A stretch of 64,000 nt of DNA from an uncultured Bacteroidia bacterium (GTDB lineage: Bacteria; Bacteroidota; Bacteroidia; Bacteroidales; CAJPTX01), in NCBI GenBank assembly GCA_963543925.1, contig CAUUCP010000001.1, positions 73,296-137,295 on the forward strand, written 5' to 3'. Below the pieces are notes generated by a model. The model was given only the letters and a program-made list of their open reading frames with translations. It had not been told where the DNA came from and ran no database searches. How positions within the stretch are numbered: the stretch's first letter is position 1; each line of letters starts with the position of its first letter. A program made the position numbers and the translations under genes. This document shows positions 622 to 25,663 of the stretch, piece after piece.

Positions 622-643
622 GGGGGGGAGACTTGGTGCTTTA

Positions 644-3145: not shown

Positions 3146-3146
3146 T

Positions 3147-3154
3147 TACCTTTG
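3147..3154 (+). promoter_or_regulatory. candidate Bacteroidota -7 promoter box (TAnnTTTG) for dnaN
   Basis: tacctttg is an exact TAnnTTTG match, 25 nt upstream of the dnaN ATG. Confidence 0.45.
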
Positions 3155-3178
3155 TGGGGAGTATAGAAAAACGATACG

Positions 3179-4390
3179 ATGCGATTTAAAGTAGATACAC
3201 AAGCGTTGTTCGACGCGTGGACTTATTTGTCTAAAGTGGTAACGCGTGGAATACCCTTTGATGGAGTGGATTTTGTAGCCAAGGGGGATGTTCTGACACT
3301 CACCCATACGGATCCGGAGGTGGCGGTTCGCGTCACGATCTCTGGGGTTGAGATCATTGAGGAGGGGACGGTCTTTTTCCCATTGAAGTCCCTTACAGAG
3401 TCTACCAAGGGGCTTTCTGGGAATAAGATGATGGTGGAGGTATGGACGGAGGCCAATGATGGAGATTTCAAGCAGTTGCGTGTCCATTCTAAGGATGATG
3501 CGGGGGGATCGGGACGAATGCCTTGTTTGGAGGAGGGTAACTTTCAGCTCTTTGAGCTTGCAGAGGAGAGTGAGTTGGAGAGTATAACACTTACGCAACG
3601 TATTATCAAACGAGGTATTGCGAATACGATTTTTGCGATCAATTCAGGGGTTCGTTCTCCGCATCAGATTTTGCTAGCAGAGTTTGTTGAGATAGAGCCG
3701 GATAAGGTAACCTTTATTGGTTCGAGCTTGAATCATTTCGCGAGTTATACGGTGAGTGGTCGGGATAATAATGGGATATCGAAAAAGCTCATGATTCCGC
3801 AAAAGGGGGCGTCCATTTTGGAGGGGATTATGAAGGATCTTCCCGACGCGGAGGTGAAATTCTCCTTTAATGATGAGTTTTTGCTCGTGGAGATGGGTGA
3901 GATATCGTTGGTGGCTCGTCTTAGAGATGAGGAGCGTTATCCTGATTTCAAATCGATGCGTACTCCTAAGGAGTCAACGTTTGAGCTTATCGTTTCTCGC
4001 GCTGATTTTTACGCAGCAGTGAACTATATCAATAGCTACGTTGGGCAAAAGGGGTTATCTGGGGTTCTTACCGTGAAAGATTCTACGCTTTATCTGGGTG
4101 TTGATGAGGCAGCGGATGGAGTTACTGCAGCAAACAAGAGTATTCCTTGTGATGCACAGTTTGACGAGGAGTTTACGATAGGATTCCGTTTGGATATCCT
4201 TGCTGCGGCCTGTACACACGTAGAGTCTCAGGATATAAACATTCTTTTACCTAAGAATATGGGGCAGGCTGCTTATATCTATCCGACGCAGAATACGGAG
4301 GAGAACGTTTGGTTTGAGCAGCTGGTTGCTAGTAATGCGACACCACCGCAGAATAAGGCTATCGCAGAAGATCAAATACCAGAGGCGTGA
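3179..4390 (+). CDS. dnaN: DNA polymerase III beta sliding clamp (diverged)
   Basis: 403 aa. The N-terminus MRFKVDTQALFDAWTYLSKVV and the length and domain pattern fit a beta clamp. It is followed by an exonuclease gene, as in many Bacteroidota. It carries an extra Gly/acidic insertion. Confidence 0.7.
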   Translation: MRFKVDTQALFDAWTYLSKVVTRGIPFDGVDFVAKGDVLTLTHTDPEVAVRVTISGVEIIEEGTVFFPLKSLTESTKGLSGNKMMVEVWTEANDGDFKQLRVHSKDDAGGSGRMPCLEEGNFQLFELAEESELESITLTQRIIKRGIANTIFAINSGVRSPHQILLAEFVEIEPDKVTFIGSSLNHFASYTVSGRDNNGISKKLMIPQKGASILEGIMKDLPDAEVKFSFNDEFLLVEMGEISLVARLRDEERYPDFKSMRTPKESTFELIVSRADFYAAVNYINSYVGQKGLSGVLTVKDSTLYLGVDEAADGVTAANKSIPCDAQFDEEFTIGFRLDILAAACTHVESQDINILLPKNMGQAAYIYPTQNTEENVWFEQLVASNATPPQNKAIAEDQIPEA

Positions 4391-5217
4391 TGACAACACC
4401 TAGTACATTGGCTTGGCGTTCTAGTTCGTTGTCCAGTTCCTTGTTTGCAGAACTGGAGTTGCGTCGTCCGTTGCTTTTTTTTGATTTGGAGACTACGGGG
4501 ATCGATCCCGTGACTTCGCGCGTGTTGCAGATTGCGCTTTTGCAGGTATTGGAGGATGGGTCGTCTCGAGAATGGGATAGTTTGGTGAATCCTACAGTGC
4601 CTATTCCTCCGGAGACGACGGCGATACATGGGGTGACGGATGCGATGGTGGTTGATGCCCCTACTTTTCAGGAGCTTGCTCCAGTGTTAGCACCCATTTT
4701 CCAAGATTCGGACTTGGCGGGTTATAATTCTACGCGCTTTGATGTTCCGATGATCCTTGAGGAGTTTGCACGTGCACATATTTATTTAGATTTTTCGCAG
4801 CACGCTCTTCTTGACGCGCATCTTATCTTTACACAGAAGGAGCCTCGGACGCTTACGGCGGCTTATCGTTATTACTGCCAAGGGGAATTGGTTGATGCGC
4901 ACTCTGCCATGGCGGATACACGCGCTTCGGCGCAGGTCTTAATGGCGCAGCTCAAGCATTACACAGACCTTCCTTCGCAAGTAGAGTCGTTGTCGCTTTA
5001 TTGTAATAATGGACAGAAGATTTTGGACTTTTCTAACCGGCTTGGGTATAACGAGAAGGGGGAAATTGTCTTTAACTTTGGAAAGTACAAGGGGCAACAG
5101 GTGCGAGAGGTTTTTCGTCAGAACGACAGCTATTATGGTTGGATGATGCAGGCAGACTTTTCGGTTCAGGTGAAGGAGGTGATTTCGAAAATCTATAAGG
5201 AACTCCACAGTGCATAA
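4387..5217 (+). CDS. DnaQ-like 3'-5' exonuclease (DEDDh)
   Basis: ExoI FFDLETTG, ExoII YNSTRFDVPM and ExoIII HSAMADT are present. It overlaps the dnaN stop by 4 nt. Confidence 0.8.
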   Translation: MMTTPSTLAWRSSSLSSSLFAELELRRPLLFFDLETTGIDPVTSRVLQIALLQVLEDGSSREWDSLVNPTVPIPPETTAIHGVTDAMVVDAPTFQELAPVLAPIFQDSDLAGYNSTRFDVPMILEEFARAHIYLDFSQHALLDAHLIFTQKEPRTLTAAYRYYCQGELVDAHSAMADTRASAQVLMAQLKHYTDLPSQVESLSLYCNNGQKILDFSNRLGYNEKGEIVFNFGKYKGQQVREVFRQNDSYYGWMMQADFSVQVKEVISKIYKELHSA

Positions 5218-5247
5218 TGTAGTGTGGATGTAATTATTGGTAATAAG

Positions 5248-5282
5248 GCACCAGTTACTAGGTAATAGTGGCTGGTGCTTTT
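5248..5282 (+). terminator. rho-independent terminator after the exonuclease gene
   Basis: Stem gcaccag (5248-5254) pairs with ctggtgc (5272-5278), extended by act/agt, and is followed by tttt. Confidence 0.6.
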
Positions 5283-5304
5283 GTCATTATAGTGTAACGG
5301 GTTA

Positions 5305-5874
5305 ATGAAGATTATTCGATTCCTAGACTCTGGCGAGGTGGTGGTGTGCAGTGATACGTCACGTGCTAATCGTGGCGAGGTATATGTTTTTCCTGTGTCG
5401 GGGGTGTATGAGGTGACTCCGTGTGTTTATTTTCATGTTTGTCAGAATTCTCGCACATTGCCTCAGGGTGCGGCATTGGAGCGTTGTGTTGATGCGTATG
5501 GTTATGTCTTGCATATTGAAAATCAGAGCTATGCGAATAATCTAGAGGCTATGGCTCGGGTTTATAGTGCAGATCGTTCTATTATTGCTAGTGGGAGTGC
5601 TTTACTTCCTGATGGAGGGATAGAGGTCTTGGGCGCATACGAACTTGTTGTGGAGGCTGGTGGCGTGCGGTATGATCTGGCGTTACGAGGCTGGGAGAAG
5701 CTTGCCCATCGGGTTGCAGAGTTGCGGAGTTGGCTTACTTTGAATGCGGGGGATTGGCTTTTGTTCCCGTTATGTTTTTCATCAATAAAAATGCCACGTG
5801 TTGTATCTATTTTCTCTCGTATCTCGTTCTACGAAGAGAATCGTTTAGTACTTGACGAGTTATTTCGATCCTAA
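5305..5874 (+). CDS. hypothetical protein, possibly a degenerate FAH-fold (fumarylacetoacetate-hydrolase-like) protein
   Basis: 189-aa ORF. The C-terminal pattern ELVVEAGGVRYDLALRGW..LTLNAGDWLLFPL loosely resembles the FAH-family '..NGe....mif....L.pGDli.TGTP' motif, but the catalytic residues are not recognisable. Confidence 0.3.
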   Translation: MKIIRFLDSGEVVVCSDTSRANRGEVYVFPVSGVYEVTPCVYFHVCQNSRTLPQGAALERCVDAYGYVLHIENQSYANNLEAMARVYSADRSIIASGSALLPDGGIEVLGAYELVVEAGGVRYDLALRGWEKLAHRVAELRSWLTLNAGDWLLFPLCFSSIKMPRVVSIFSRISFYEENRLVLDELFRS

Positions 5875-5880
5875 TATTTC

Positions 5881-7557
5881 ATGTCAGAATCTATTCACGC
5901 CGTTTGTGGCGTTAGCGCACCGTTCTTTTCTAAAGAGGCTCGGGGATTGTTGTTGCAAATTATGGGTGAACAAGTGTCACTTATACATTTACAGACTCCC
6001 CCTTATGCCCATTTACACAACGAGTATTTTCTTTCTAGTGAGGAGATTGGGCGAGTTATTGATTTTGCAAGAGCGCAGCATCTTTTACAGGAGGATGCTC
6101 ATGGTCTTTTGCATTACACTCACTTGCATTTTTCCGTCCTTCTTTTACAGTTGGAGGAGTATTATGCTTCTCAATCTGTAGCGCATCGCTACTTGACGAG
6201 CACGGATTTGGAGTCTATTTTCTCCGATGATTTCTTCCAAGCGTCGCTCTATTACTTGCAACGTATATTTCATATTTTGCTTCGACGCGAACGTCACGCT
6301 TTGGCAGAAAAACCAGGGCGTATCCTTCTTCTTCGCTTGATGTCGCAGCTTTGGTTGTCGGTCTTTGAAACGCTTCCGGCTTTTGAGCAAAGTTCGCTCC
6401 CACTTCTTCAACTCTATTTTGTCTTGCGTGACAATCACTATCAGTTCGAAGTCGCGTATTTTCGTAAACAGCTTCAGACGTCGCCGTACCTCTTGGAGGT
6501 GTTGTCGCTTTTCTCTTGGGAGTATTCTCGGGCACAAGCTGGGAGTTTTCCTATTGATCTTCTTACGTTTGCCAAGAATATAGGTTTATCTCCTACGGAT
6601 ACCTCTTTACTTTGGTCTGCAGTAAGGGATTTGATGCGGTGGGTTGGTGGGTGTGATCCTCGGATAGCGGCGCGTTTGTCGTTGCTCCGTGAGGATTTTC
6701 AACGTACGGCATCTATCATTTTTCTACAGATAAAGAATGAGGATTATGCCTTGGGGCATTCTTGGGATGGGATGCTCTTTTCGGAGACGACCGAGGAAGA
6801 GCAGACTCCCCTGACCGAGATCGCTGCGGTATGTAAAGAGATTGAGGGGGATATGGAGGAGTATGATCCTGTAGACCAAGGTGCTTTTTTTGTTTTTATC
6901 GGGGCATCGGGACGTGGTCAACGCGATGCGGCGCGTGCTTTGCGGTATCAGCTTTCACAGATTGATGGTTGGCGTTATACGACGGGCTACTATGAGTGGG
7001 ATGTACAAAAGTTGTTGCATGCCCCTTGTACGGAATGGGAGGCTCGTTTGGCGCGTTATCCTCAGGGGGCGATTTATTTTTACAATTTCCCTCCGCTTGT
7101 CATGGCAGACCAAAAGGAAGAGGTTGAGACTTTGCGTGTGTTTTTGCAACGCGTGAGTGAGAACCTGATGGGGCGGATGTATATATTCGATTTCGTCTCT
7201 CCGACCTATATCCAACACTATCTTCCAGTGCTAGAATCGTTACCACTGTGGGTGATCCATTTTCCAGCTTATAGCAAGGCTTATTTGAAACATCATTTCA
7301 AGCAACTGGGGATAATGGCCGAGGTGGATATAGAGCCTACGGTCTATATCCGTTTGGGAGAATTGTATGAAAAGACGGCACCGTTATTCGATCATGGGAT
7401 TGCTGCAGACCTATTCGTTTATCAGCTTTTTGCGGAATCGCTTCAAAATATGTCGTTACGGGTGAAGGAGAACTATCTTAGAAGTGAGGTACTCCTCTCC
7501 TCTGCTATTACAGCCGAGGATTTGCGTGTGGCGCTGAATACAATCTTACACCTATAA
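5881..7557 (+). CDS. hypothetical protein with a C-terminal degenerate AAA+-like (CbbX/SpoVK-like) module
   Basis: 558-aa ORF starting 6 nt after the previous gene. FFVFIGASGRGQRDAARAL sits where a Walker A would be (Lys replaced by Gln), and AIYFYNFPPL sits where a Walker B would be. The N-terminal ~330 aa were not recognised. Confidence 0.35.
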   Translation: MSESIHAVCGVSAPFFSKEARGLLLQIMGEQVSLIHLQTPPYAHLHNEYFLSSEEIGRVIDFARAQHLLQEDAHGLLHYTHLHFSVLLLQLEEYYASQSVAHRYLTSTDLESIFSDDFFQASLYYLQRIFHILLRRERHALAEKPGRILLLRLMSQLWLSVFETLPAFEQSSLPLLQLYFVLRDNHYQFEVAYFRKQLQTSPYLLEVLSLFSWEYSRAQAGSFPIDLLTFAKNIGLSPTDTSLLWSAVRDLMRWVGGCDPRIAARLSLLREDFQRTASIIFLQIKNEDYALGHSWDGMLFSETTEEEQTPLTEIAAVCKEIEGDMEEYDPVDQGAFFVFIGASGRGQRDAARALRYQLSQIDGWRYTTGYYEWDVQKLLHAPCTEWEARLARYPQGAIYFYNFPPLVMADQKEEVETLRVFLQRVSENLMGRMYIFDFVSPTYIQHYLPVLESLPLWVIHFPAYSKAYLKHHFKQLGIMAEVDIEPTVYIRLGELYEKTAPLFDHGIAADLFVYQLFAESLQNMSLRVKENYLRSEVLLSSAITAEDLRVALNTILHL

Positions 7558-7602
7558 ATTGTGTACTATTGCGTGGCGATAACGTGGGGTAGACACGGGA
7601 AT

Positions 7603-8937
7603 ATGTTGGAGGCATCGGATTTTACGCGAGGGCGGATTACGCCTCAGATTATGAGGTTAGCGCTCCCTATTATGGGGACGGCCTTTATTCAGATGGCGTA
7701 TAATATGGCCGATTTTTACTGGATCGGTCACCTTAGTGGGCTCGCAGCGGCAGCGGTGGGCGCTATGGGTCTCTTTACGTGGTTGGGTCTCTCGTTGAGT
7801 TTTTTACCTAAGGTCGGAGCAGAGATCACTATCTCCCAGAGTATTGGGGCGCGTACCTATCAGCGTGCTATGCGCTATGCCCAGCATGCTCTTTTGTTAG
7901 CTCTTCTTCTTGGTTTGGCTTTTGGTCTTTTTCTTTTTGTGTTTCAGCGTCCGTTAGTTGCTTTTTTCACCTTTACCTCTCCAGAGGCTGTGCGTTATGC
8001 TGAGGATTATCTGGCGATTGTCTCTTTGGGTAGTCCTTTTGCCTTTTTGAATGCGACGTTCTTTGGGCTTTATAATGGTCGTGGGAAGTCTAATCTCGCA
8101 TTTTTAGCTAATGGGTCTGGGTTGTTGATGAACTTGATTTTAGATCCGTTGCTTATTGAGGGGTATCTATTTTTTCCTCGTCTAGAGGTTGTGGGTGCTG
8201 CGTGGGCTACGGATATTGCACAGGCGATAGTGACGTTGTTGTTCCTTCTCCTTAACGTGTCGCGTAAAGCTCCTTTTCATGGACTGTTTCGTAGTTTTCG
8301 TCTTTCACGTGCTTTTCTTGAGCGGATTGTACGCCTAGGTATCCCAGTTACCTTTCTGAATGGGTTATTTGCTTTTATCTCGTTGGTGATAGCCCGTCTT
8401 GTCGCTCGGTGGGGAGATCTCGGGGTGGCGGTGCAGTCGGTAGGTGCACAGATAGAGGCTATTTCTTGGATGACGGCAGGTGGTTTCTCTACAGCGCTCT
8501 CTAGTTTTGTGGGTCAGAATTGGGGCGCACACAACCTCGCTCGTATCAAGAAGGGATACCGTATTACGCTTACTTACATGCTCTCATTGGGTGGAGTAAC
8601 GACGTTGCTTTTTATGCTCTTTGGTGCTGAAATTATTGGCTTTTTTATCCCAGAGCCAGAGGCGCAAAGACTGGGGGGGGAGTATCTGTTTATCATCGGG
8701 ATTTCTCAAATCTTTATGATATTGGAGATTACCAATTCTGGAGTCTTCAATGGTATTGGGCGTACGACGCATCCTGCCGTGGTGGGCACGACATTTAATC
8801 TTTTGCGCATCCCACTTGGCTTGTGGTGGGGAGCGATTTGTTTGGAGGGGATTTGGTGGGGGATTACCGTGTCGAGTATTTTGAAAGGTCTTGTGCTTAC
8901 AGGGGTGCTTGTCTTCCTTTATCGTAAACGTCTTTGA
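7603..8937 (+). CDS. MATE-family multidrug/oligosaccharide efflux transporter
   Basis: About 12 TM helices with a MatE-like N-terminus ITPQIMRLALPIMGTAFIQMAYNMADFYWIGHLS. The ORF opens with GTG at 7561, and the first ATG at 7603 is used here. Confidence 0.8.
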   Translation: MLEASDFTRGRITPQIMRLALPIMGTAFIQMAYNMADFYWIGHLSGLAAAAVGAMGLFTWLGLSLSFLPKVGAEITISQSIGARTYQRAMRYAQHALLLALLLGLAFGLFLFVFQRPLVAFFTFTSPEAVRYAEDYLAIVSLGSPFAFLNATFFGLYNGRGKSNLAFLANGSGLLMNLILDPLLIEGYLFFPRLEVVGAAWATDIAQAIVTLLFLLLNVSRKAPFHGLFRSFRLSRAFLERIVRLGIPVTFLNGLFAFISLVIARLVARWGDLGVAVQSVGAQIEAISWMTAGGFSTALSSFVGQNWGAHNLARIKKGYRITLTYMLSLGGVTTLLFMLFGAEIIGFFIPEPEAQRLGGEYLFIIGISQIFMILEITNSGVFNGIGRTTHPAVVGTTFNLLRIPLGLWWGAICLEGIWWGITVSSILKGLVLTGVLVFLYRKRL

Positions 8938-9031
8938 GTGTGCACAATAAAAGCTAGGCAAAAGGGGTTATTACCAGACAAGTCGGTAGAGAGGAAACAA
9001 GAGGTAGTAACTAGGGTAAGCTTTATACACA

Positions 9032-10201
9032 ATGCGACGTTTCATACAGTTTGTGCTCTCGTTGGTTATCATGCTCTTCATCGGGGCATTTGGCGCGTGG
9101 TTAGCGCTTCGTTATTTCCCAGAATATTTTTCTATACAGACAGGTGCTAGTGTGCGCCCAGCACTCGGGGATACGCTGCGGTGTGCGAGTCCGCGTACCG
9201 ATTTTGAGCAGGCCTTTATCGCTGCGGCAGCGCAGGCCTCCCCTTCGGTGGTGCATGTGCATGTACAATCGATTATCGAGCGAGAGAGTCCCTATAAGGG
9301 CTCGATTTATGAGTTCTTTTTTGGGCCGCAACCCAATATTCAACAGCGCGTCTCTTCGTCGGGGTCAGGGGTTATCGTCTCTTCTGACGGATTGGTGATA
9401 ACCAACAATCACGTGGTGGCGGGGGCTAAGCGTTTGTCCGTTACTCTTACCAATCAAGAGGTTTTGTCTGCCGAGATCGTTGCGCGCGATCCTGCGATAG
9501 ACCTAGCGCTTTTGCGTGTGCATTCTTCCAAGCCTTTGCCAGCGATTCGTTTTGGCGAGGCGGATAGTTTGCGTGTGGGGAGTTGGGTCTTGGCAATTGG
9601 CAACCCGTTTGATTTGGAAACTACCGTCACGGCAGGTATTGTGAGTGCGAAGGCGAGGTCGTTGAATCTTCAATCTGGGCGGGTTGCTATCGAGTCATTT
9701 ATACAAGTTGACGCCGCGGTGAACCCAGGCAATAGTGGCGGGGCATTGGTAAATCTGCAAGGCGAGTTGGTGGGGATCAATACAGCCATTGCCTCGCCGA
9801 CGGGGTCATTCGCAGGCTATGCTTTTAGTATCCCTGAGAATATAGTGCGGGACTTCCTTGATAATGTAAAGGAACGTGCCCAGCTTTCTGAGCGTGGTAA
9901 AGTTGAGCGTGGTGTCTTGGGGGTGGTGCTCACAGAGCTTCGTCCACATCTTGCAAAGGCGTTGACCGATGGTAAGAAAGAGGGGGTGGTGATAGCTCAG
10001 GTTCGTGTGGGGAGTGCAGCTGCCGAGGCGGGCTTACAGCAAGGAGACGTTTTGGTCGCGATTGATGGTACGAGGTTGAAGTCTGTGTCGCAGGTCAACC
10101 GTCTTTTGGCAAGAAAGAGTCCTGGGACGAGGGTACGTGTGACCTACGTACGTGCCAAGGTAGAGAGTACAGTGGATGTAATCTTGAAAGCGAGTGAGTA
10201 A
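9032..10201 (+). CDS. htrA: HtrA/DegP-family serine protease (S1C) with a single PDZ domain
   Basis: N-terminal TM anchor, catalytic triad contexts TNNHV / DLALL / GNSGGAL, and one PDZ (GVVIAQVRVGSAAAEAGLQQGDVLVAIDG). Confidence 0.85.
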   Translation: MRRFIQFVLSLVIMLFIGAFGAWLALRYFPEYFSIQTGASVRPALGDTLRCASPRTDFEQAFIAAAAQASPSVVHVHVQSIIERESPYKGSIYEFFFGPQPNIQQRVSSSGSGVIVSSDGLVITNNHVVAGAKRLSVTLTNQEVLSAEIVARDPAIDLALLRVHSSKPLPAIRFGEADSLRVGSWVLAIGNPFDLETTVTAGIVSAKARSLNLQSGRVAIESFIQVDAAVNPGNSGGALVNLQGELVGINTAIASPTGSFAGYAFSIPENIVRDFLDNVKERAQLSERGKVERGVLGVVLTELRPHLAKALTDGKKEGVVIAQVRVGSAAAEAGLQQGDVLVAIDGTRLKSVSQVNRLLARKSPGTRVRVTYVRAKVESTVDVILKASE

Positions 10202-10775
10202 CGCTGTAAAAGCGGAGGATGAGGCGGCTTTTGGAATGTCGCCTACTCTCCTCTACAAGAGCCGATTGGGAATAGAGAAGGGGAGTCTGAGTTGGTTGGC
10301 GAAGTTCCTAGACGCGCACCGTGCTTTGGTTTATGCTTTGGTACAAGAGTATTACGTGCCTCCGTTGGATCTTCAAGGGCTGGTGCAGGTCGCCAATGTG
10401 GGGTTGCTTCATGCTTTGGAACAAGTGCTAGATAGTCGCTCGAGTGTTCGGTTTTATACCATGGTAGGGGGGGATATTCGTGCCGCTCTGAGCCGCTTTA
10501 TAGAGACAACGCATCGCGTTGAGAGGGTCTCCTATCTCTATCTAGGGCATTACGCGACCTTGGCGGGAGGTACGGAGGTACTCTTAGTTCGTGAACCGCT
10601 CCTTCATCATTGTAAGTTAACTATCGGAGATGAGATTCTTACGATCAATCACCAAGAGGTGCATTCTGTAGGCGATGTCAATGCTATGCTACAAGGTGTG
10701 AGTTCTGGAGAAGCGTTCTCGCTAAGTTATTTGCATGCGGGAGAATTGTTGCATGATTCTATGAGATGTGAATAA
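10194..10775 (+). CDS. hypothetical protein: N-terminal sigma-70 region-2-like segment plus C-terminal PDZ-like domain
   Basis: 193-aa ORF with a GTG start overlapping the htrA stop (alternative ATG at 10236). The C-terminus KLTIGDEILTINHQEVHSVGDVNAMLQGVSSGEAFSLSYLHAGELL is PDZ-like. The N-terminal similarity to sigma region 2 is by eye only. Confidence 0.45.
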   Translation: MSNAVKAEDEAAFGMSPTLLYKSRLGIEKGSLSWLAKFLDAHRALVYALVQEYYVPPLDLQGLVQVANVGLLHALEQVLDSRSSVRFYTMVGGDIRAALSRFIETTHRVERVSYLYLGHYATLAGGTEVLLVREPLLHHCKLTIGDEILTINHQEVHSVGDVNAMLQGVSSGEAFSLSYLHAGELLHDSMRCE

Positions 10776-10992
10776 ATCCTGTGGGAGTATAATACTAAGA
10801 CAGTGAACACGTTAATAGAGAGAAATGAGGTACGGTATGGCTTCCATTGCAACATTTAGGACAATTAGACGTTATAAAAGCCATAGAGAAAATAAGGAAT
10901 TTCTAAGAATGTGAGCGTTTTCGTGTATGAGAGTGTGTGTCTTGTTGTTCTAGTCATCTTTGTCGTTTTAATAACCCCTTAAGTATATCGGT

Positions 10993-11853
10993 ATGAGGCA
11001 ACTCAAAATCTCTAAGTCTATAACTAACCGCGAGAGCGCTTCGCTGGATAAATATCTGCAGGAGATCGGTAAGGAGGATCTTATTTCTGCAGAGGAGGAG
11101 GTCGAGCTCGCGCAACGTATTCGCAAAGGCGATCACGAGGCGCTGGAGAAGCTCACGCGTGCCAATCTCCGTTTCGTGGTTTCGGTGGCAAAACAATATC
11201 AAAATCAAGGGTTAACCCTCCCTGACCTTATCAACGAGGGTAACCTAGGGCTTATTCGTGCAGCGGAGAAGTTTGATGAAACCCGAGGGTTTAAGTTCAT
11301 CTCCTACGCAGTATGGTGGATTCGTCAATCGATCCTTCAGGCTTTGGCCGAACAGTCCCGTATCGTTCGTTTGCCGTTGAACCAAGTGGGGGCTTTGAAT
11401 AAGATCAACAAGGCTATCGCAAAGTTTGAACAGGAACAGGAGCGTGCCCCTTCGGTCGATGAGTTGGCAAAGGAGACCAATATGCCTAAGGAGAAGATCG
11501 CCGACAGTTTGCGGGTTTCGGGACGTCACGTTTCTATTGATGCGCCCTTTGTCGAAGGGGAAGAGAATAGTCTGTTGGACGTGCTCACGAATCCAGATTC
11601 CCCTAAGGCCGATAATACGCTCTTACAAGAAAGTCTCCGTAAGGAGATAGATCGCGCACTGGCTACTTTGGGAGATCGCGAGAGTGCTATCATACGTTCT
11701 TTCTTCGGTATTGGCTGTCCAGAACAGACCTTGGAAGAGATCTCGGAAAAGTTTAAGCTTACTCGTGAACGAGTGCGACAGATTAAGGAGAAGGCTATCC
11801 GCCGTCTTCGTCACTCCAGTCGTTCGAAGAATCTGAAAGCTTATTTAGGTTAG
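10993..11853 (+). CDS. rpoD: primary RNA polymerase sigma factor (Bacteroidota sigma-A type)
   Basis: 286 aa with regions 2-4 present ([51 protein letters not shown]) and no region 1.1. Confidence 0.9.
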
Positions 11854-11881
11854 TGGTGGGGTGTATTGGAAAAAACGAATA

Positions 11882-11919
11882 AGGCGATGCTTCCGAGGGT
11901 GGGAGCGTCGCCTTTTTTA
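11882..11919 (+). terminator. rho-independent terminator of rpoD
   Basis: Stem aggcgatgc (11882-11890) pairs with gcgtcgcct (11905-11913, one G-U pair) and is followed by a T6 run. Confidence 0.7.
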
Positions 11920-11980
11920 TTAGAGCGTTTGGAGGGGGGCGTGCGTCTTCGAACGTGTAATCCCTGTCGATATAAAGTGG

Positions 11981-12296
11981 GTAATAGTTGCCTATTTTGC
12001 CGCCTACCGCCCGCTCGTTCTCCCTCCATTACACACTACCACTTTAGAAAATCCTAAACGAGTAGTTTATACAACTTACTAGATAATACGGTATAAAAAT
12101 AATGAAATACGTCTATAATAGGGGCTATTTTTCTACCGAATTTACAGGGTATACAAAGGGTATACAAGCGGTCTACAAGGATGACAAAAGGATGTCAAAA
12201 AGGCACTACACACGATCTACCCCTATCCCACTCCGTAGGTAGTATAGCAATTTAGGAATATACAAAGATTTATACGCGATCCCAATCTCCTACCAG
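11981..12296 (+). repeat. copy A of a ~320-bp non-coding repeat element (inverted partner at 24251..24585)
   Basis: It aligns colinearly with the reverse complement of 24251-24585. This includes a 29-nt exact block (12019-12047) and a 15-nt exact block (12135-12149). Confidence 0.85.
12136..12224 (+). repeat. phased 11-bp direct-repeat array within copy A (about 8 units)
   Basis: Units: ccgaatttaca / gggtatacaaa / gggtatacaag / cggtctacaag / gatgacaaaag / gatgtcaaaaag / gcactacacac / gatctacccct. Confidence 0.75.
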
Positions 12297-12390
12297 CCCC
12301 CGCGGTGCTTACACACTCTTACAGACACACCATCTCCTTTTTAGGATTGTATCCCTTGTACACGGATAGTTCCTTTGGGGATATTAAGGT

Positions 12391-12951
12391 TTAGGAATTG
12401 AGTAGTAAATCGATAACAAAGGGCAGGTAGCGATGCTCGAGACTGTGGATGCGTTCGGCGAGCGAGTCTGGGGTGTCATTGGGTAAGACGGGGCAAGAGG
12501 CTTGTAGGATGGGGGCGCCCGTGTCGTACTGTTCGTCTACATAGTGGATGGTAATCCCTGAATACGAGGCGCGTGCGGCAAGTACGGCTTCGTGTACGTG
12601 CTCGCCGAACATTCCTTTTCCACCAAAGTTGGGGAGGAGGGCTGGGTGGAGGTTGATAATCCGGCGGGTGTACTGTTGGGGTATTTCTGGCGGTATAAGG
12701 GCTAAATAACCCGCTAAAACGATAAAGTCGATAGAATATTCCTTTAGAATGTTTAGGAGCGCGTTAGGCGTTGTTTTGCGCGAAATGAGCGTTGTAGGAA
12801 TACCGTACTGTTGCGCTCGATGGATAACGTAAGCCTCTGGCTTATTTACGACGATCACGGCCACACGAGCATAAGATGCACCTGATAGGTGATCTAAGAT
12901 GGCTTGGGCATTCGTCCCATTGCCAGAAGCGAAAATAGCGATATTCTTCAT
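12391..12951 (-). CDS. purN: phosphoribosylglycinamide formyltransferase
   Basis: 186 aa with IAIFASGNGTNAQAIL and NLHPALLP motifs. Confidence 0.85.
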   Translation of the reverse strand: MKNIAIFASGNGTNAQAILDHLSGASYARVAVIVVNKPEAYVIHRAQQYGIPTTLISRKTTPNALLNILKEYSIDFIVLAGYLALIPPEIPQQYTRRIINLHPALLPNFGGKGMFGEHVHEAVLAARASYSGITIHYVDEQYDTGAPILQASCPVLPNDTPDSLAERIHSLEHRYLPFVIDLLLNS

Positions 12952-13393: not shown

Positions 13394-14650
13394 ATGGAGC
13401 TTAAACGAGTCGTTGTGACGGGGTTGGGAGCACTCACCCCCATTGGGAATAACTTGGCAGAATACTGGGATGCGTTGAAGAACGGTCGTAGTGGCGCAGC
13501 TCCGATCCGTGGTTTTGATGCGAGCAAATTCAAGACCACCTTCGCTTGCGAGTTGAAGGGGTTTGATGGAGCGGCGCATTTCGATCGCAAGGAGATACGC
13601 AAACTCGATCTCTATTCCCAATATGCGTTGGTCGCTGCCGAGCAAGCCGTGCTGGATGCTGGCTTGTCGGCGGGAGAAGGGGTCAAGGCGGAGCGTGTTG
13701 GAGTTATCTGGGGGTCGGGGATCGGAGGTATACATACCTTCTGGAATGAAGCGGAGGAGTTCTTCAAGGGAGATGGTACGCCGCGCTTCAATCCGTTCTT
13801 TATCCCTAAGATGATCTCGGATATCGCGGCGGGGCTCATTGCGATGAAGTATGGCTTCCGCGGTCCAAACTATACCACGGTTTCGGCTTGTGCATCGTCT
13901 ACACACGCCTTGGTCGACGCTACGAATCTGATCCGTCTAGGCAAGGCTGACGTCTTCGTCTCGGGAGGATCTGAGGCTGCGATCAATCCGTCGGGACTCG
14001 GTGGTTTTAGTTCTATGCAAGCGCTCTCTACTCGGAACGATGATCCTGCAACTGCTTCTCGCCCCTTTGACAAAGACCGCGATGGCTTTGTACTGGGCGA
14101 AGGTGCTGGGGCGTTGATTCTCGAAGAGTATGAACATGCCAAAGCTCGCGGAGCTAAGATCTATGCAGAAATCGTCGGAACGGGCATGACAGCCGATGCG
14201 TATCACCTGACAGCACCTCACCCCGAGGGGTTGGGCGCCGCGGCGGTGATGCGTCTTGCGCTCGAAGAAGCGGGGATTCAACCCGAGGAGGTGGATTATA
14301 TCAACGTCCACGGGACCTCTACCCCAGCTGGCGATTTGCCAGAACTAAGAGCCGTGCAGAATGTCTTCGGTGAGGCTGCAAAGAAACTCAATATTAGTTC
14401 AACGAAGTCTATGACGGGGCATCTTCTAGGGGCTGCAGGTGCGATAGAGTCTGTGGCGTGTATCATGGCGATACAGCACTCTCTGATCCCACCGACCATC
14501 AATCTTCAGAACCGTGACGAGGCTATCGATCCCGAGTTGCAGTTGACGCCCAACAAAGCAGTTGAACGTAAGGTTAGGTATGCTCTTTCCAATACTTTTG
14601 GTTTTGGTGGGCATAACTCATCTTTAATATTCAAGGCTTACGAACTCTAG
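13394..14650 (+). CDS. fabF: 3-oxoacyl-ACP synthase II
   Basis: 418 aa with active-site context ACASS, HGTSTPAGD and GHLLGAAG. Confidence 0.9.
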   Translation: MELKRVVVTGLGALTPIGNNLAEYWDALKNGRSGAAPIRGFDASKFKTTFACELKGFDGAAHFDRKEIRKLDLYSQYALVAAEQAVLDAGLSAGEGVKAERVGVIWGSGIGGIHTFWNEAEEFFKGDGTPRFNPFFIPKMISDIAAGLIAMKYGFRGPNYTTVSACASSTHALVDATNLIRLGKADVFVSGGSEAAINPSGLGGFSSMQALSTRNDDPATASRPFDKDRDGFVLGEGAGALILEEYEHAKARGAKIYAEIVGTGMTADAYHLTAPHPEGLGAAAVMRLALEEAGIQPEEVDYINVHGTSTPAGDLPELRAVQNVFGEAAKKLNISSTKSMTGHLLGAAGAIESVACIMAIQHSLIPPTINLQNRDEAIDPELQLTPNKAVERKVRYALSNTFGFGGHNSSLIFKAYEL

Positions 14651-14696
14651 TAAATTGGGTCGTTCGGTCACGTTATTTCGGACGACCTTCCGTAGG

Positions 14697-14738
14697 GTCT
14701 GTTCTTTTCTCTCTAGGAGAGGAGAACAGACTTTTTTT
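14697..14738 (+). terminator. strong hairpin plus T7 run between fabF and rnc (terminator or rnc leader stem-loop)
   Basis: gtctgttct (14697-14705) pairs with agaacagac (14723-14731), followed by T7 (14732-14738) and then the rnc ATG at 14739. A second hairpin lies upstream: ggtcgttcg (14658-14666) pairs with cggacgacc (14679-14687). Confidence 0.6.
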
Positions 14739-15410
14739 ATGCCTTTGCTGCGCGAGCATTTTGGAATAAAAAAGGTTCACACCTCTAGCTATTACGTCTC
14801 TGCGCTCACGCACAGCTCTTTTTATGCCGAACACGCACAGGTTACAGCCTCACTAAACGAACGCCTCGAGTTCTTAGGAGATGCTGTCCTCGAGTTGGTC
14901 GTTTCCTCTTATCTCTACGAACGTTTCCCTTCAATAGACGAAGGAAAGTTGACCCGTTTTCGTGCCAACATTGTTTGCCGAGAGAGTTTGAATGCCTTAG
15001 CCAACTCTATACAATTGGGAAGTTACCTGCGGGCAAGCTTTCCAGTGAAACAATTGAGTATTGATGCTTTAGGTAATGCCTACGAGGCGCTTGTAGGGGC
15101 TATCTACCTAGATCAAGGTTTTGAGAAGACCCAGCGTATACTAGTCAAACACCTATTAGAGACTTCGCTTATCGATTGGACGCTCTTGCAGGGCGAGCTC
15201 TACGACTATCGTTCTTTGGTACTCCACTGGTCGCAGCGCGAGAAGAAGAAGGTAGACTTCGTCTATAACGAGATTAGTCACTCCCCTTCTCTATTCGAGT
15301 GTTTAATTTACGTAGACGATGTCATCGCAGCCACCGCGAAGGGGCGTAACAAGAAGCTCGCAGGACAAGAGGCTTGCAAATTGCTTGTCGAACAGTATGA
15401 GCTTAATTAG
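14739..15410 (+). CDS. rnc: ribonuclease III
   Basis: Signature NERLEFLGDAVLE and a dsRBD-like C-terminus. The ORF opens with TTG at 14655, and the first ATG at 14739 is used here. Confidence 0.85.
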   Translation: MPLLREHFGIKKVHTSSYYVSALTHSSFYAEHAQVTASLNERLEFLGDAVLELVVSSYLYERFPSIDEGKLTRFRANIVCRESLNALANSIQLGSYLRASFPVKQLSIDALGNAYEALVGAIYLDQGFEKTQRILVKHLLETSLIDWTLLQGELYDYRSLVLHWSQREKKKVDFVYNEISHSPSLFECLIYVDDVIAATAKGRNKKLAGQEACKLLVEQYELN

Positions 15411-18637: not shown

Positions 18638-19116
18638 GCAAAAAGACAATCCTCTCCCCGCTTTTGTTGAGACAAATACCCATAAAAAGTAACGAACAAG
18701 AACCTACACTCCTTGCCCGATCTTGCTAAATATCCTACTAGCAAAGTACTTCCCTATGGATGCTGTGGGGAAAATTGGGTAGTGAAAAATTGCACCAGAC
18801 GCACCCTTCAGAAATCCTAAAGAAAATCCCAGCGCGGAGAGAAAATGACTACCGTCCGAGCAACGCTAGCGGGCGGAATCATACCCAGTTTGAGAGATAC
18901 TTGCTGGGGATGAGAAAAGCCATTCTGCATCACAAGATTATTATACATTGCTGTGTTAATACAATGAACAAAGAGCTCTTGGTCACCTATTTATACGACA
19001 CTATTTGCGTATTAACGAATCGATAAAAAAAGAGACTACTACTGGGGATTGTCTCGCATTTCATCTCTATTTTACTAACTCCCCAATGCTCTTTTTTCCC
19101 TCTAAGGACAATTGCC

Positions 19117-19124
19117 TACTTTTG
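19117..19124 (+). promoter_or_regulatory. candidate -7 promoter box (TAnnTTTG) for the lipoprotein-lpxH pair
   Basis: tacttttg lies 16 nt upstream of the ATG at 19140. This supports the trimmed start. Confidence 0.45.
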
Positions 19125-19139
19125 GTACATAAAAGCAAT

Positions 19140-19871
19140 ATGATGCGAATCTACTTTTTCGGTCTTCTTTTTTTCCCCCTTTTCTTTGGCATGGCTTGTC
19201 GTCCCGCACCGAAAACTACGCTCTGCGTGCAAGATGCCACACAGCATCCTTGTAGTTTCGAGTATGCCATCCTCCGACGCCCCTACACCCCTACGGACTC
19301 CACTTCCCGAGTCCACTACCTCCCTCACGACTCCACTATGCTCACCCTTCATCTTCAGGAGCCTACCTTCGTCGCTGTCCGTACCCACAATACAGAACAG
19401 ATCTACCTCCTCCTTCTCGCACCTAACGAGAATGCCCACCTCGCAGTGCGCCCACGAGGTTATCATGTGACGGGCTCTGTAGAGAGTGCTCGCCTGCTGG
19501 GGATCTACCAGATCTTACAATCGTTTAACGACTCTGTGGCTTGGCTCAATCAACGACAAGCTTGGGTCACGCTACGGGACACTCTCCCCCTCTCTGGCGA
19601 GTGCCCCTCCCCCTACGAACCATTTCGGGCTGCCTATGACTCTTTGCGTATACGCGCCCAAGAAGGCCTCATACGCTTCATTATAGAGAATCCTTACTCC
19701 AAGGCTAACCTTCTCGCCTTGTCCGCAGAATTTGCCCCCAACCAGCGTTTTTTTGAAACAAACAAGCAGCGAGCCTTTGCTAGAGAAATCCTTCGTCTCC
19801 AAACAGACTATTACCAAGAGGTTGATTTTGCCCAACAACTCCTCAGAGAATATGACCACACGGATGAATAA
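19140..19871 (+). CDS. hypothetical lipoprotein
   Basis: ORF 19005..19871 trimmed to MMRIYFFGLLFFPLFFGMAC, which is a signal peptide with a lipobox Cys. No family was recognised. Confidence 0.55.
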   Translation: MMRIYFFGLLFFPLFFGMACRPAPKTTLCVQDATQHPCSFEYAILRRPYTPTDSTSRVHYLPHDSTMLTLHLQEPTFVAVRTHNTEQIYLLLLAPNENAHLAVRPRGYHVTGSVESARLLGIYQILQSFNDSVAWLNQRQAWVTLRDTLPLSGECPSPYEPFRAAYDSLRIRAQEGLIRFIIENPYSKANLLALSAEFAPNQRFFETNKQRAFAREILRLQTDYYQEVDFAQQLLREYDHTDE

Positions 19872-20658
19872 CCCTGAGCGGCAGCGGCTCTACTTTGCCT
19901 CGGACTTCCACCTAGGGTTGGAAACGGATACGCCGGCACGTAAGCGAGAGGCGATCATCGTCGCCTGGTTACGCGCCATTCGCCCTACGACCCATTCGCT
20001 CTATCTGTTGGGCGATATATTTGATTTTTGGTGGGAATATCGTCGTGTGGTGCCCAAGGGCTTTGTGCGCTTCCTTGCAGCGCTTGCCGACTTTACGGAT
20101 GCGGGAATTCCTGTCCATATTTTTACGGGCAACCACGACGTTTGGATGTTTGATTATTTAGAAAAGGAGCTCTCGGTACACGTACATCGACATGCCGAGA
20201 CCTGCTCCTTTTTCGGTCGGGAATTCTACCTCTGCCACGGCGACGGGCTAGGGGCGACCTCCCTGCCCTTCTGCTTGATGCGCGCGGCTTTTCACTCTTC
20301 ATTCCTTCAGTGGCTTTTTGCGCACCTTGTACACCCCGATGCGGCGCTGCGCTTCGGACACGCGTGGTCTCGCCATAACCGTTATGCTAAGAGTTTTCAC
20401 CACACCTTTCGTGGCGATAACGAGCCCGTTGCACAATTTGCTCACCGACACTATCGCGCGACGGGCACGCCCTTCTACCTCATGGGACACCTCCATATCG
20501 CTACCCTCCACGCTCTCGCCCCCGCTGGCGCGTTGCTTATCTTGGGCGACTGGCTCACGCAGTATACCTTCGCCTCTCTAGATGAAAAAGCCTTACGCTT
20601 AGAACAATTTCATCCAGAGGATGGGTCAACGACTCTCCTCGCCACGTTGGAGTTCTAG
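19864..20658 (+). CDS. lpxH: UDP-2,3-diacylglucosamine hydrolase
   Basis: Metallophosphoesterase motifs LYFASDFHLG, GDIFDFWWEY and GNHD. The ATG at 19864 overlaps the upstream stop (ATGAATAA); an alternative ATG is at 19852. Confidence 0.8.
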   Translation: MNNPERQRLYFASDFHLGLETDTPARKREAIIVAWLRAIRPTTHSLYLLGDIFDFWWEYRRVVPKGFVRFLAALADFTDAGIPVHIFTGNHDVWMFDYLEKELSVHVHRHAETCSFFGREFYLCHGDGLGATSLPFCLMRAAFHSSFLQWLFAHLVHPDAALRFGHAWSRHNRYAKSFHHTFRGDNEPVAQFAHRHYRATGTPFYLMGHLHIATLHALAPAGALLILGDWLTQYTFASLDEKALRLEQFHPEDGSTTLLATLEF

Positions 20659-24170: not shown

Positions 24171-24193
24171 GCTTAATCTTTCCAACTAAGGGG

Positions 24194-24201
24194 CAAAAGT
24201 A
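24194..24201 (-). promoter_or_regulatory. candidate -7 promoter box (TAnnTTTG) for parC-dapF
   Basis: Minus strand tacttttg, 24 nt upstream of the parC ATG. Confidence 0.45.
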
Positions 24202-24250
24202 AAAAGAAGTAGGATACTGTCCTATACAGGGTGGTTATGCGTCACTGGAT

Positions 24251-24585
24251 CTGGTAGGAGATGGGGGGCTTATAAATCTTTGTGTATTCCTAAATAGAGT
24301 ATACTCCCTACGGGGAGGGATAGGGTAGAGTGGGTGTAGAGTCATTTTGTCATCCTTTTGTCATCTATGTAGAGTTTATGTAGAGTTTATGTAGAGTCTA
24401 TGTAGACCCCTTGTAGACCCTGTAAATTCGGTGGGAAAACAGCCTCTATTATGCGTATTCCATTATTTCTATGCTACTTTATTTAGTAGTCTGTATAGAG
24501 ATAAACTTTAGGATTTCCTAAAGTGGTAGTGTGTAATGGAGGGAGAAAGATCGGGCGTTAGGTGGAGGAATAGGCAGCCTATTAC
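24251..24585 (-). repeat. copy B of the ~320-bp non-coding repeat element (inverted relative to copy A)
   Basis: Its reverse complement is colinear with 11981-12296. Exact blocks lie at 24518-24546 and 24418-24432. Confidence 0.85.
24323..24431 (+). repeat. phased 11-bp direct-repeat array within copy B (about 10 units)
   Basis: Units start at 24323, 24334, 24345, 24356, 24367, 24378, 24389, 24400, 24411 and 24421: gggtagagtgg / gtgtagagtca / ttttgtcatcc / ttttgtcatct / atgtagagttt / atgtagagttt / atgtagagtct / atgtagacccc / ttgtagaccc / tgtaaattcgg. Confidence 0.8.
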
Positions 24586-24658
24586 AGGCTTTTAGGAAAA
24601 AACAAGGAACTAGGGACTTTAGCTTATCGCTTCCCTCCCATCGCGCGCTGCGCACTAT

Positions 24659-25663
24659 TTACTCTACTGGCTGCCCCCTGTATTGAGAAGACTGATAGGC
24701 ACCACGTTCCACCAATAGTTGTTTGAAGCGCCGCAATACCTCGTCGTTTCGGATTAACCCCCAGTTTGGTGCAAGAAGGTAACGTGGAGGAGCTTCTGCA
24801 CAAATGCGCTCTATGGCAATCGTGGAGGGTAACGATGTTACTATCCCTACCAAGAACTCTATATACTCTTCTAAACTCCAGAGTGAGAAGGCAGTGGGAT
24901 TGGCAAGCCACTCCTCAGCCATCTGCGTTCCCCGCAAGATTTGTAATTGATGAAACTTGATGGTCTGGATACCGCACGCCACCACACCGTTCAGGGTCTC
25001 GTACATCATCGCGTGGGTTTCGCCGGGTAATCCCCAAATCAGATGCACACCGACAGGTATCCCTACAGCACGTAGTCGCGCGATAGCCTTCAAAGATTGC
25101 TGCGCAGTATGTCCACGTCGGATACGTGTCAACGTGTTCTCCTGCAGCGTTTCGACCCCCAACTCTACAAACAAATAGGTGCGAGAAGAGAGCTCTTTTA
25201 GTAATGCAAGCACCTCTTCGGGTAAACAGTCTGGACGTGTCGCGATAACCAAGCCCTCTACCCGAGGCGTCGCCAAGGCTTCTTCGAAAAGAGCACGTAA
25301 CTGCGCAACACTCCCATAGGTATTCGTATAGGCTTGGAAATAAGCAAAATAACGACTTGCTCGTCGGTAACGATTCGCGTGAAAAGAGATCCCTTCCTCC
25401 AACTGTTGGCGAATAGACTTCTGCGGTGTGCAGTACGATGGGTTAAATGCCTCGTTATTGCAATAGGTACAGCCGCCTTCTTTCCGGTTTCCCGACACAC
25501 GATGTGGACACGAAAAGCCGGCATCCACCGCTAGCTTTTGTACACGAGCGCCCCATAAATTGCGCATATAGCGCGTATAGGTGTAAAGAGGTTGGTCGTC
25601 TCCCCAAGGGTATTGTACGTTTTGTGTAGAAGAGGAGGGGATCTCGTGTGCAGTGTGGGACAT
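24659..25663 (-). CDS. radical SAM protein, TIGR01212-like
   Basis: 334 aa with FSCPHRVSGNRKEGGCTYCNN, a CxxxxxxxxxxCxxC-type cluster context characteristic of this family. Confidence 0.7.
   Translation of the reverse strand: MSHTAHEIPSSSTQNVQYPWGDDQPLYTYTRYMRNLWGARVQKLAVDAGFSCPHRVSGNRKEGGCTYCNNEAFNPSYCTPQKSIRQQLEEGISFHANRYRRASRYFAYFQAYTNTYGSVAQLRALFEEALATPRVEGLVIATRPDCLPEEVLALLKELSSRTYLFVELGVETLQENTLTRIRRGHTAQQSLKAIARLRAVGIPVGVHLIWGLPGETHAMMYETLNGVVACGIQTIKFHQLQILRGTQMAEEWLANPTAFSLWSLEEYIEFLVGIVTSLPSTIAIERICAEAPPRYLLAPNWGLIRNDEVLRRFKQLLVERGAYQSSQYRGQPVE

Follow-up and report, generated by a model that had tools for sequence, protein, structure and literature searches.

The 64,000-nt stretch analysed here (the window; contig CAUUCP010000001.1, positions 73,296 to 137,295) is part of the chromosome of an uncultured Bacteroidia lineage, with a ParC that is 84% identical to that of a 'Bacteroidia bacterium' metagenome-assembled genome (MAG) and about 60% identical to those of Rikenellaceae. 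Between the start of parC (− strand) and the 3′ end of a TIGR01212-type radical-SAM gene (24659-25663, − strand) lies a tandem array of 11-bp units, array B, next to an AT-rich block. A related array, array A, lies between the convergent 3′ ends of an rpoD-like sigma gene (10993-11853, + strand) and purN (12391-12951, − strand). The 12 kb between the two carry purN, fabF, rnc, nrdG, nrdD, two unknown open reading frames (ORFs), dapF and parC. Pfam scans of all large ORFs showed the remaining genes of the window to be housekeeping genes as well and found no transposase, integrase, Rep, Par, phage or other mobile-element gene in the 64 kb; nor is any obvious regulator, partition or recombinase gene encoded there. 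Each array forms the core, variable in length, of one copy (A or B) of an element about 340 bp long, a non-coding, lineage-specific, modular intergenic repeat built of a flank, an 11-bp variable-number tandem repeat (VNTR) and a second flank, and the two copies sit inverted in two unrelated intergenic regions. An earlier, sequence-only reading had placed the arrays inside an 'element'; what stands is this inverted pair of intergenic repeats, and not a large mobile element. The limits of the copies and the units of their arrays are:

24251-24610, + strand: element copy B, with left flank, 11-bp array, AT block and palindromes
11960-12296, − strand: element copy A, inverted relative to copy B
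24324-24422, + strand: array B, nine 11-bp units in perfect register, in order GGTAGAGTGGG, TGTAGAGTCAT, TTTGTCATCCT, TTTGTCATCTA, TGTAGAGTTTA (twice), TGTAGAGTCTA, TGTAGACCCCT and TGTAGACCCTG
12145-12221, − strand: array A, seven 11-bp units, on the − strand GGTAGATCGTG, TGTAGTGCCTT, TTTGACATCCT, TTTGTCATCCT, TGTAGACCGCT, TGTATACCCTT and TGTATACCCTG

Anchored on the core, the T/GGT starts in array B fall at 24324, 24335, 24346, 24357, 24368, 24379, 24390, 24401 and 24412. The sequence-only reading had counted ten units here; nine are in strict register, and the supposed tenth (TGTAAATTCGG, at 24421) belongs to the conserved flank CCCTGTAAATTCGGT, its TGT lying 9 rather than 11 bp on. The 11-bp period given in that reading is correct, whereas its description of the units needs amending: there are two types, TGTAGA(G/C) plus four nucleotides (seven in array B, five in array A) and TTTTGTCATCC (two in each array), the TGT of the latter being 2 bp off the TGTAGA register. 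Tandem Repeats Finder reports period 11 at 24345-24365, 24366-24406, 12146-12178 and 12177-12200. We measured periodicity as the lag-11 self-match, that is, the frequency with which a base equals the base 11 positions on, in sliding 99-bp intervals. Array B scored 0.707 and array A 0.576, against a mean of 0.249 (standard deviation 0.048) over the 64 kb, and these are the top two self-match scores in the 64 kb across lags 2 to 30. Within 1.34 Mb of related Bacteroidia DNA, no 77-bp interval had a lag-11 self-match of at least 0.55. The 11-bp array is thus a real, non-random, structured feature at both positions given in the sequence-only reading (24323-24431 and 12136-12224) and, as that reading had described, it stands next to an AT-rich block in both copies; the two arrays give the top lag-11 signals and the two blocks the top AT-rich 70-mers.

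Pairwise alignment and BLAST showed copies A and B to be about 75% identical over about 340 bp, with homology fading beyond these limits. The element is intergenic at both sites and has no conserved ORF; a candidate small ORF in the right flank (MEGER...) was rejected because its start and frame are lost in two related-strain contigs, L082 and L083. Read in the orientation of copy B, the parts follow one another as a left flank that is G-rich and contains TTCCTAAA, the array, an invariant junction CCCTGTAAATTCGGT, an AT block of about 75 bp, the palindrome ACTTTAGGA-TT-TCCTAAAGT, the block GTGGTAGTGTGTAATGGAGGGAG, the palindrome AATAGGC-A-GCCTATT and a further TTTAGGAA. The individual features are:

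24436-24516, no strand: AT-rich block of copy B, about 72-74% AT, of which 24447-24516 is among the two most AT-rich 70-mers
12037-12136, no strand: AT-rich block of copy A, with the window's most AT-rich 70-mers
12042-12058: palindrome-like site TTTAGAAAATCCTAAA, within the AT block of copy A
24505-24524, no strand: palindrome ACTTTAGGA-TT-TCCTAAAGT, comprising two TTTAGGAW motifs
24569-24583, no strand: palindrome AATAGGC-A-GCCTATT, whose AATAG-N4/5-CTATT form is kept in all copies
24287-24294, − strand: TTTAGGAA motif in the left flank of copy B
24591-24598, + strand: further TTTAGGAA motif

The AT blocks are 72% AT and, by composition, include the window's top two 70-mers in AT content (0.743 and 0.757; window mean 0.525, standard deviation 0.062); no repeated 13-mer-type motif was seen in them. 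The palindrome at 24505-24524, read on the − strand, is followed by a T-rich run and is a weak match to a terminator pattern. The centre of the AATAG..CTATT palindrome varies among copies, and a third half-site adjoins the array. TTTAGGAW has ten matches in the window, eight of which fall within or next to the two elements (12051-12397 and 24287-24598); these eight include the perfect palindrome at 24505-24524 and a match that overlaps the stop codon of purN (12390-12397). With TTTAGGAW, AATAG..CTATT and the array repeats, the element packs at least three kinds of short, repeated motif densely together. Copy B also has an 18-nt inverted repeat with 83% identity (24277-24294 and 24591-24608), which is not kept in copy A, and no terminal inverted repeat (TIR) is common to both copies. 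Both arrays are predicted to be intrinsically curved, in agreement with the sequence-only reading: under a wedge model with Bolshoy-Trifonov parameters, array B is the third and array A the sixth most curved 100-bp locus in the window (percentiles 0.16 and 0.26), ranks that are indicative only.

Copy A is flanked by 3′ ends on both sides, and copy B lies upstream of a gene start. The parC start is most likely the ATG at 24170 on the − strand, because a 100%-identical 890-aa protein is on record (P0064). For the Bacteroidetes −7 promoter consensus we took TAnnTTTG and used it to call the parC promoter; a box at 24194-24201 matches it perfectly, so that element B starts about 50 bp upstream of the predicted promoter, and array B lies about 120-230 bp upstream of the predicted −7 box. 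No exact −7 box of this kind occurs inside the element. The flanking features, together with the skew switch treated below, are:

11881-11914: strong terminator of the rpoD-like sigma gene
24194-24201, − strand: TACTTTTG, a perfect Bacteroidetes −7 match, 24 nt upstream of the parC ATG
14400-15400: maximum of the cumulative GC skew (+ to − switch), between copies A and B

To follow the element through related strains, we collected four metagenome contigs for locus A by exact look-up of the sigma protein and three contigs for locus B by look-ups of parC and radical-SAM relatives. Two further candidates, P0186 and P0187, proved to be unrelated sigma-gene contexts and were set aside; in exact-protein look-ups, purN, nrdG, the radical-SAM protein and P0064 were not on record. 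All the related strains seen have both loci stably occupied. The anchors GGTAGA and (T/C)AAATTC lie 77 bp apart in copy A of the window, 88 bp in L083, 99 bp in copy B of the window and 110 bp in L085, so that unit number is 7, 8, 9 or 10 and always changes by whole units. These distances indicate that the array gains and loses whole units, as expected of replication slippage or unequal exchange; the sequence-only reading had expected unit number to vary between strains if the array was prone to slippage. The same reading would have been contradicted by a periodicity that was not conserved in other copies or relatives, and the period is present in every copy and relative found. Unit content also changes: L083 keeps the first two units and the register, and its centre consists of TATCAACGTTC three times in place of TGTAGA units.

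The copies also trade sequence. In each of the four strains the neighbouring sigma gene shows 97% identity, with 90-91% identity at third codon positions. Compared with the window, the right flank of the element is 91% identical in L084 and L085 and 73-77% identical in L082 and L083, and the latter two share many states with copy B of the window, not with copy A. Because the right flank of L082 and L083 has diverged beyond the third positions of the sigma gene and carries copy-B states, this pattern indicates that the copies exchanged sequence by gene conversion or that a replacement occurred. Five of the seven related-strain contigs (L082, L084, L086, L091 and L092) end in or just outside the element, and three contig ends fall at the edge of the 11-bp array. 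Such breaks are what array-length heterogeneity or repetition does to short-read assembly, and the element is an assembly-breaking hotspot in this lineage. Two of these contigs differ locally. In L092 (L092:1-30), the first 29 nt upstream of parC are unlike the expected left flank and resemble right-flank TTACACACT...TTTAG, which may reflect an internal deletion of array and AT block or an assembly artefact. The B-type copy in L086 (L086:4935-4975, SRR33858004) has an extra duplication of about 35 nt of the GGCTGCCTATT segment, which includes the AATAG..CTATT palindrome. Samples that carry the element include SRR33858004 and ERZ28574679.

A single uncultured Bacteroidia lineage carries the element, which is absent from sister genera and from the closest GTDB genomes. 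L001, the relative with 84% ParC identity, has the same 12-kb parC-to-purN block with a 58-bp gap upstream of parC, and the element is not found upstream of parC there, nor in L087, which has the radical-SAM block, nor at 80 related parC loci. A 22-mer of the right flank had no match in GTDB representative genomes; plasmid and phage collections contained nothing similar to the element; and viral contigs gave no match. A 20-mer scan of JGI metagenomes gave one contig (L081:600-645), with a 22-nt identity to the right flank (AGTGGTAGTGTGTAATGGAGGG); part of an IS1595-like transposase gene lies about 130 nt upstream of this match, which in a collection of that size is probably due to chance. The visible copy number is two in the 64-kb window, the 22-mer and 20-mer scans adding only that one probable chance match. 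The parC-to-purN block of the window corresponds to L001 and the radical-SAM-to-RelA block to L087, and the window lacks homologues of the genes that adjoin these shared blocks in L001 and L087. Because the flanking blocks match different relatives in this way, the position of copy B (24186-24658; L001:1-2600; L087:10978-11200) coincides exactly with a synteny breakpoint. Among the relatives, none was found that has this gene adjacency without the element, L001 and L087 having other neighbours. Short intergenic arrays recur among Bacteroidia: at the parC loci of L053, L058, L069, L073 and L074 we observed apparently non-coding tandem arrays with a period of 7-9 bp (for example AGGGAGTAT/CTAAACTCC in L074 and CGTGCTT in L058), none of them with an 11-bp period.

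Phased 11-bp repeats with a similar core also occur in viral DNA. A scan of viral contigs for three TGTAGAS-N4 units in tandem gave at least 120 contigs, 100 of them from one phage family. The 11-bp-phased TGTAGAC/G arrays found in the viral contigs L095-L214 include those at L095:8297-8324, L103:2752-2779, L164:4041-4068 and L212:7601-7628. In the family of 100 contigs (about 55 kb), three TGTAGAC units are followed by AT-rich AGATTAAATAA-type repeats; about ten other, independent viral arrays have replication genes (D5_N or Prim-Pol/AAA_25) as neighbours or sit between a terminase and a portal gene. We rejected a reading of these matches as motif enrichment: tandem repeats are common, and any 11-bp repeat with this 7-mer would match. 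All they show is that the replication and packaging regions of phages often carry 11-bp arrays. One of the viral contigs (L106:2392-4854) has a terminase large-subunit gene that apparently contains an intein, with Hint_2 and Intein_splicing matches.

The units of the array do not vary evenly along their length. Among 20 TGTAGA-type units from three arrays, positions 1-6 depart from the consensus in 10 of 120 cells and positions 7-11 in 42 of 100 (Fisher p = 4e-9). The units of L085 have mutually diverse spacers and keep TGTA.A, and exactly two TTTTGTCATCC units are present in copy A, copy B and L085. Together, the conservation of the core and the fixed TTTTGTCATCC pair are suggestive of site-specific recognition, though short of proof. 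The pair TTGTCATCC-TT-TTGTCATC resembles the E. coli Pho box, CTGTCATAWAWCTGTCAY, at 13 of 18 positions by eye; the TTGTCATCC pair had no match in viral contigs.

Based on these results we propose, with a probability of about 0.5, that the element is a curved, same-face protein-binding ladder or architectural platform whose length is changed by slippage, which is close to the nucleoid-protein platform that the sequence-only reading had offered as its other option. One unit corresponds to about one helical turn, so that the conserved TGTAGA cores and the pyrimidine-rich spacers would align on one face of a curved stretch. By analogy, a protein might bind as a cooperative ladder, head to tail, with one protomer per turn; we favour this arrangement because the best-documented systems of this geometry bind one protein unit per 11-bp repeat. 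The parC/ParR system of plasmid R1 has ten direct 11-bp iterons on strongly curved DNA at a promoter, with one ParR dimer bound cooperatively per iteron (PMC2241845). It differs in that its iterons form two sets of five flanking the par promoter, with parM and parR adjacent, on a plasmid; here a single uninterrupted array lies on the chromosome; a short-iteron curved array is present, and the window has no adjacent operon of parM/parR or of another motor and adaptor, as in type II partition. Operators of winged-helix proteins of the OmpR, PhoB and ArcA type likewise consist of direct repeats with a 7-bp core and a 4-bp spacer, 11 bp from centre to centre: PhoP recognizes 7-bp repeats with 4-bp spacers (PMC4832192), and ArcA sites have 2-5 direct repeats at 11-bp spacing, extra repeats extending the footprint (PMC4173790). 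The known operators have their 2-5 repeats at or near a promoter, whereas here 7-10 units lie about 120-230 bp upstream of the predicted −7 box in copy B, and copy A, between convergent 3′ ends, has no promoter; no regulator was identified for either. In the proposed element, the palindromes, the easily melted AT block and the ladder would form an architectural nucleoprotein site, and gain or loss of an 11-bp unit would change the length of the ladder and roughly keep the helical phase between the flanks. In copy B, the platform would lie just upstream of the predicted parC promoter and could modulate parC expression.

Several observations weigh against this proposal. No binding protein for the array was identified, copy A has no promoter or gene to act on, and only two copies per genome are visible. 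L083 has swapped most of its TGTAGA units for another unit, a change hard to square with a fixed binding specificity. Since sister genera lack the element, any function must be dispensable or recent. The statistics are also less decisive than they appear: when six TTTGTCA units are added, departures from the consensus number 34 of 156 in the core and 60 of 130 in the spacer, still unequal, and the core-versus-spacer test is generous because the units share ancestry and the selection pattern partly required the core. Finally, conservation of the 11-bp period alone is no proof of selection, because slippage of an 11-bp unit keeps the period automatically.

The main rival, which we consider less likely, is that the element is a selfish or neutral repeat resembling a MITE (miniature inverted-repeat transposable element) or a BOX or BrickBuilt repeat, in which the array is a slippage-prone 11-bp minisatellite, its units are read by no protein, and phasing, curvature and 'sites' are by-products. 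At least two copies at unrelated intergenic sites, a lineage restriction with element-free orthologous sites in sister genera, variable unit number with one strain having replaced its unit, assembly breaks at the element, a mosaic divergence above that of neighbouring synonymous sites and the position of copy B exactly on a synteny breakpoint are all consistent with such a repeat, as are the 7-9-bp arrays in other Bacteroidia intergenic regions. By architecture, the closest known element is BrickBuilt, a MITE of Porphyromonas gingivalis with 23-nt units, 19 copies per genome, IS5-type TIRs (GAGACCTTCGCA) and some target-site duplications, whose distance to a gene start can be below 100 nt and which may serve as a promoter region (PMC4596501). 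Both belong to Bacteroidia, are non-coding and always intergenic, have a leader, spacerless repeats and a tail, and gain or lose whole repeats at conserved loci, repeat number varying by strain (PMC4596501). The present element differs in its 11-nt unit, its two visible copies, its AT block and palindromes and the lack of a shared TIR; the BrickBuilt TIR is absent from both copies, and there is no sequence similarity to BrickBuilt. Measured against MITEs in general, the copies are short, non-coding and intergenic, with a leader-repeat-tail structure of 7, 8, 9 or 10 units, and shared TIRs were not found, the 18-nt, 83% inverted repeat of B being absent from A. Against a selfish repeat also stand the lack of a transposase in the window, the stable occupancy of both loci in all related strains seen and the conserved core beside a variable spacer; the fixed TTTTGTCATCC pair and the enriched motifs point to constraint. 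A separate rival, in which the element is a recombination or transposition end with the outer palindrome CTTTAGGA-TT-TCCTAAAG as recombinase core and the 11-bp units as arm or subterminal sites, like attP arms or the ends of Tn7 and Mu, appears improbable. From outside to inside, both inverted copies do present palindromes, AT block and array in that order, and L001 has the intervening 12-kb block as a single synteny unit, though with different neighbours. Its cargo would nevertheless be single-copy housekeeping genes (purN, fabF, rnc, nrdDG, dapF, parC) that are syntenic in an element-free relative; the 64 kb contain no integrase or transposase, and homology runs 70-90 bp beyond the palindromes between copies that are only about 75% identical. 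A transposon with TIRs carrying the 12-kb segment was rejected on the same grounds, the segment being housekeeping DNA that is syntenic in L001 without the element.

The remaining rivals assign the element to replication or to RNA. The cumulative skew switches from + to − at 14400-15400, and the change of sign does not depend on which strand the genes are on, since + skew is seen in purN (− strand) and − skew in the + strand ORFs at 19005-20658. All genes left of copy A are on the + strand (518 to 11853) and all genes right of copy B on the − strand (24659 to 63838). Skew switch and converging gene orientation together are therefore the signature of a terminus, the opposite of an origin, and, judging from the skew, the window very likely contains the replication terminus. 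A chromosomal origin (oriC) was accordingly rejected, the skew running from + to − rather than from − to + and there being no cluster of DnaA boxes: TTATCCACA at no more than one mismatch gives 15 matches in the window where 13.4 are expected, none of them in the elements. The sequence-only reading had likened the locus to the iterons and DNA-unwinding element (DUE) of a plasmid, and an origin of plasmid or phage type, functional or as a relic of an integrated replicon, is the least probable of the alternatives. Its attractions are that 7-10 tandem, phased direct repeats abut the window's most AT-rich DNA, as in the origins RK2 oriV, F oriS, R6K gamma and pSC101, and that 11-bp TGTAGAC/G arrays lie beside primase or helicase genes in phage contigs such as L103, L164 and L152. 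Typical iterons, however, are 17-22 bp, longer than the 11-bp units here, and such origins have an adjacent Rep gene and often DnaA boxes. Near the elements there is no initiator, Rep, primase, partition or phage gene; each of the two copies lies among housekeeping genes; plasmid and phage similarity is absent and the skew is terminus-like; and the phage arrays match in a short core only, as expected by chance among the many tandem repeats of the viral collection. The plasmid comparison is thus not supported. A non-coding RNA, whether small RNA, 3′ untranslated region or terminator module, is also very improbable. The right flank folds better than shuffled sequences (z = −2.2 to −2.4), and the palindrome with its T-run gives a weak terminator pattern toward the upstream gene, but Rfam returned nothing even at E <= 1, RNAalifold gave a covariation term of +0.25 and only one compensatory pair among 26, and the stems, being DNA palindromes, fold equally well from either strand, with no exact −7 box inside the element. 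A known RNA family was rejected for lack of an Rfam match and of covariation support. It is slightly less improbable, though still most doubtful, that the inverted elements are polar terminus sites acting with an unknown DNA-binding protein to trap replication forks or, as a pair, to organise the terminus, with Tus-Ter, RTP-Ter or matS as functional analogues. The inverted copies at 12.1 and 24.4 kb bracket the strand-independent skew maximum, where gene orientation fully converges; an incoming fork would meet the same face at either copy, and the local skew of each is opposite to that of its replichore; and L087 also shows gene convergence directly after the radical-SAM gene. Tus-Ter of E. 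coli and RTP-Ter of B. subtilis likewise have oppositely oriented sites bracketing a skew-defined terminus. Their Ter sites, in contrast, are single sites of 23-30 bp with a dedicated terminator protein, whereas here there are arrays, no candidate terminator protein was seen and sister genera do not conserve the element, which is missing from L001 and L087. Bracketing by two inverted copies in 64 kb has a chance probability of roughly 0.1-0.2, orientation to replication is inseparable from orientation to transcription of the upstream gene, and array sequence and length differ among strains. Terminus regions are, moreover, known for repeats and rearrangements, which collect there anyway. No meaningful signal for a proteobacterial-type dif pattern or the E. 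coli KOPS (GGGNAGGG) was seen in the window. A beta-clamp-like ORF (DNA polymerase III; 3179-4390, 403 aa; weak Pfam matches to the beta-clamp domains, E about 1e-10 and 1e-7) is located some 10 kb away from the terminus-like switch in skew and not near an origin.

A modular intergenic repeat with a VNTR and phased repeats is a known kind of element; the present family is undescribed and narrowly distributed. It is a second intergenic element of the form flank, tandem repeat, flank in Bacteroidia, unrelated to BrickBuilt, and it marks a hotspot of short-read assembly breaks in its lineage. If it is only a selfish repeat, its value would be practical, as a VNTR for typing strains and in accounting for gaps in assemblies. 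We know of no fork-trap system in this phylum, and the pair bracketing the skew-defined terminus is a cheap candidate for terminus-related functions. Interest would rise sharply only if that arrangement were functional: the 11-bp ladder, AT block and palindromes, as polar modules defining the terminus, would then be a third solution, unrelated to Tus-Ter and RTP-Ter, a prospect that we regard as just as doubtful as the polar sites themselves. If the protein-binding ladder that we favour is correct, the number of binding sites would be tuned by slippage in steps of one helical turn and, at copy B, directly upstream of the gene for topoisomerase IV subunit A.

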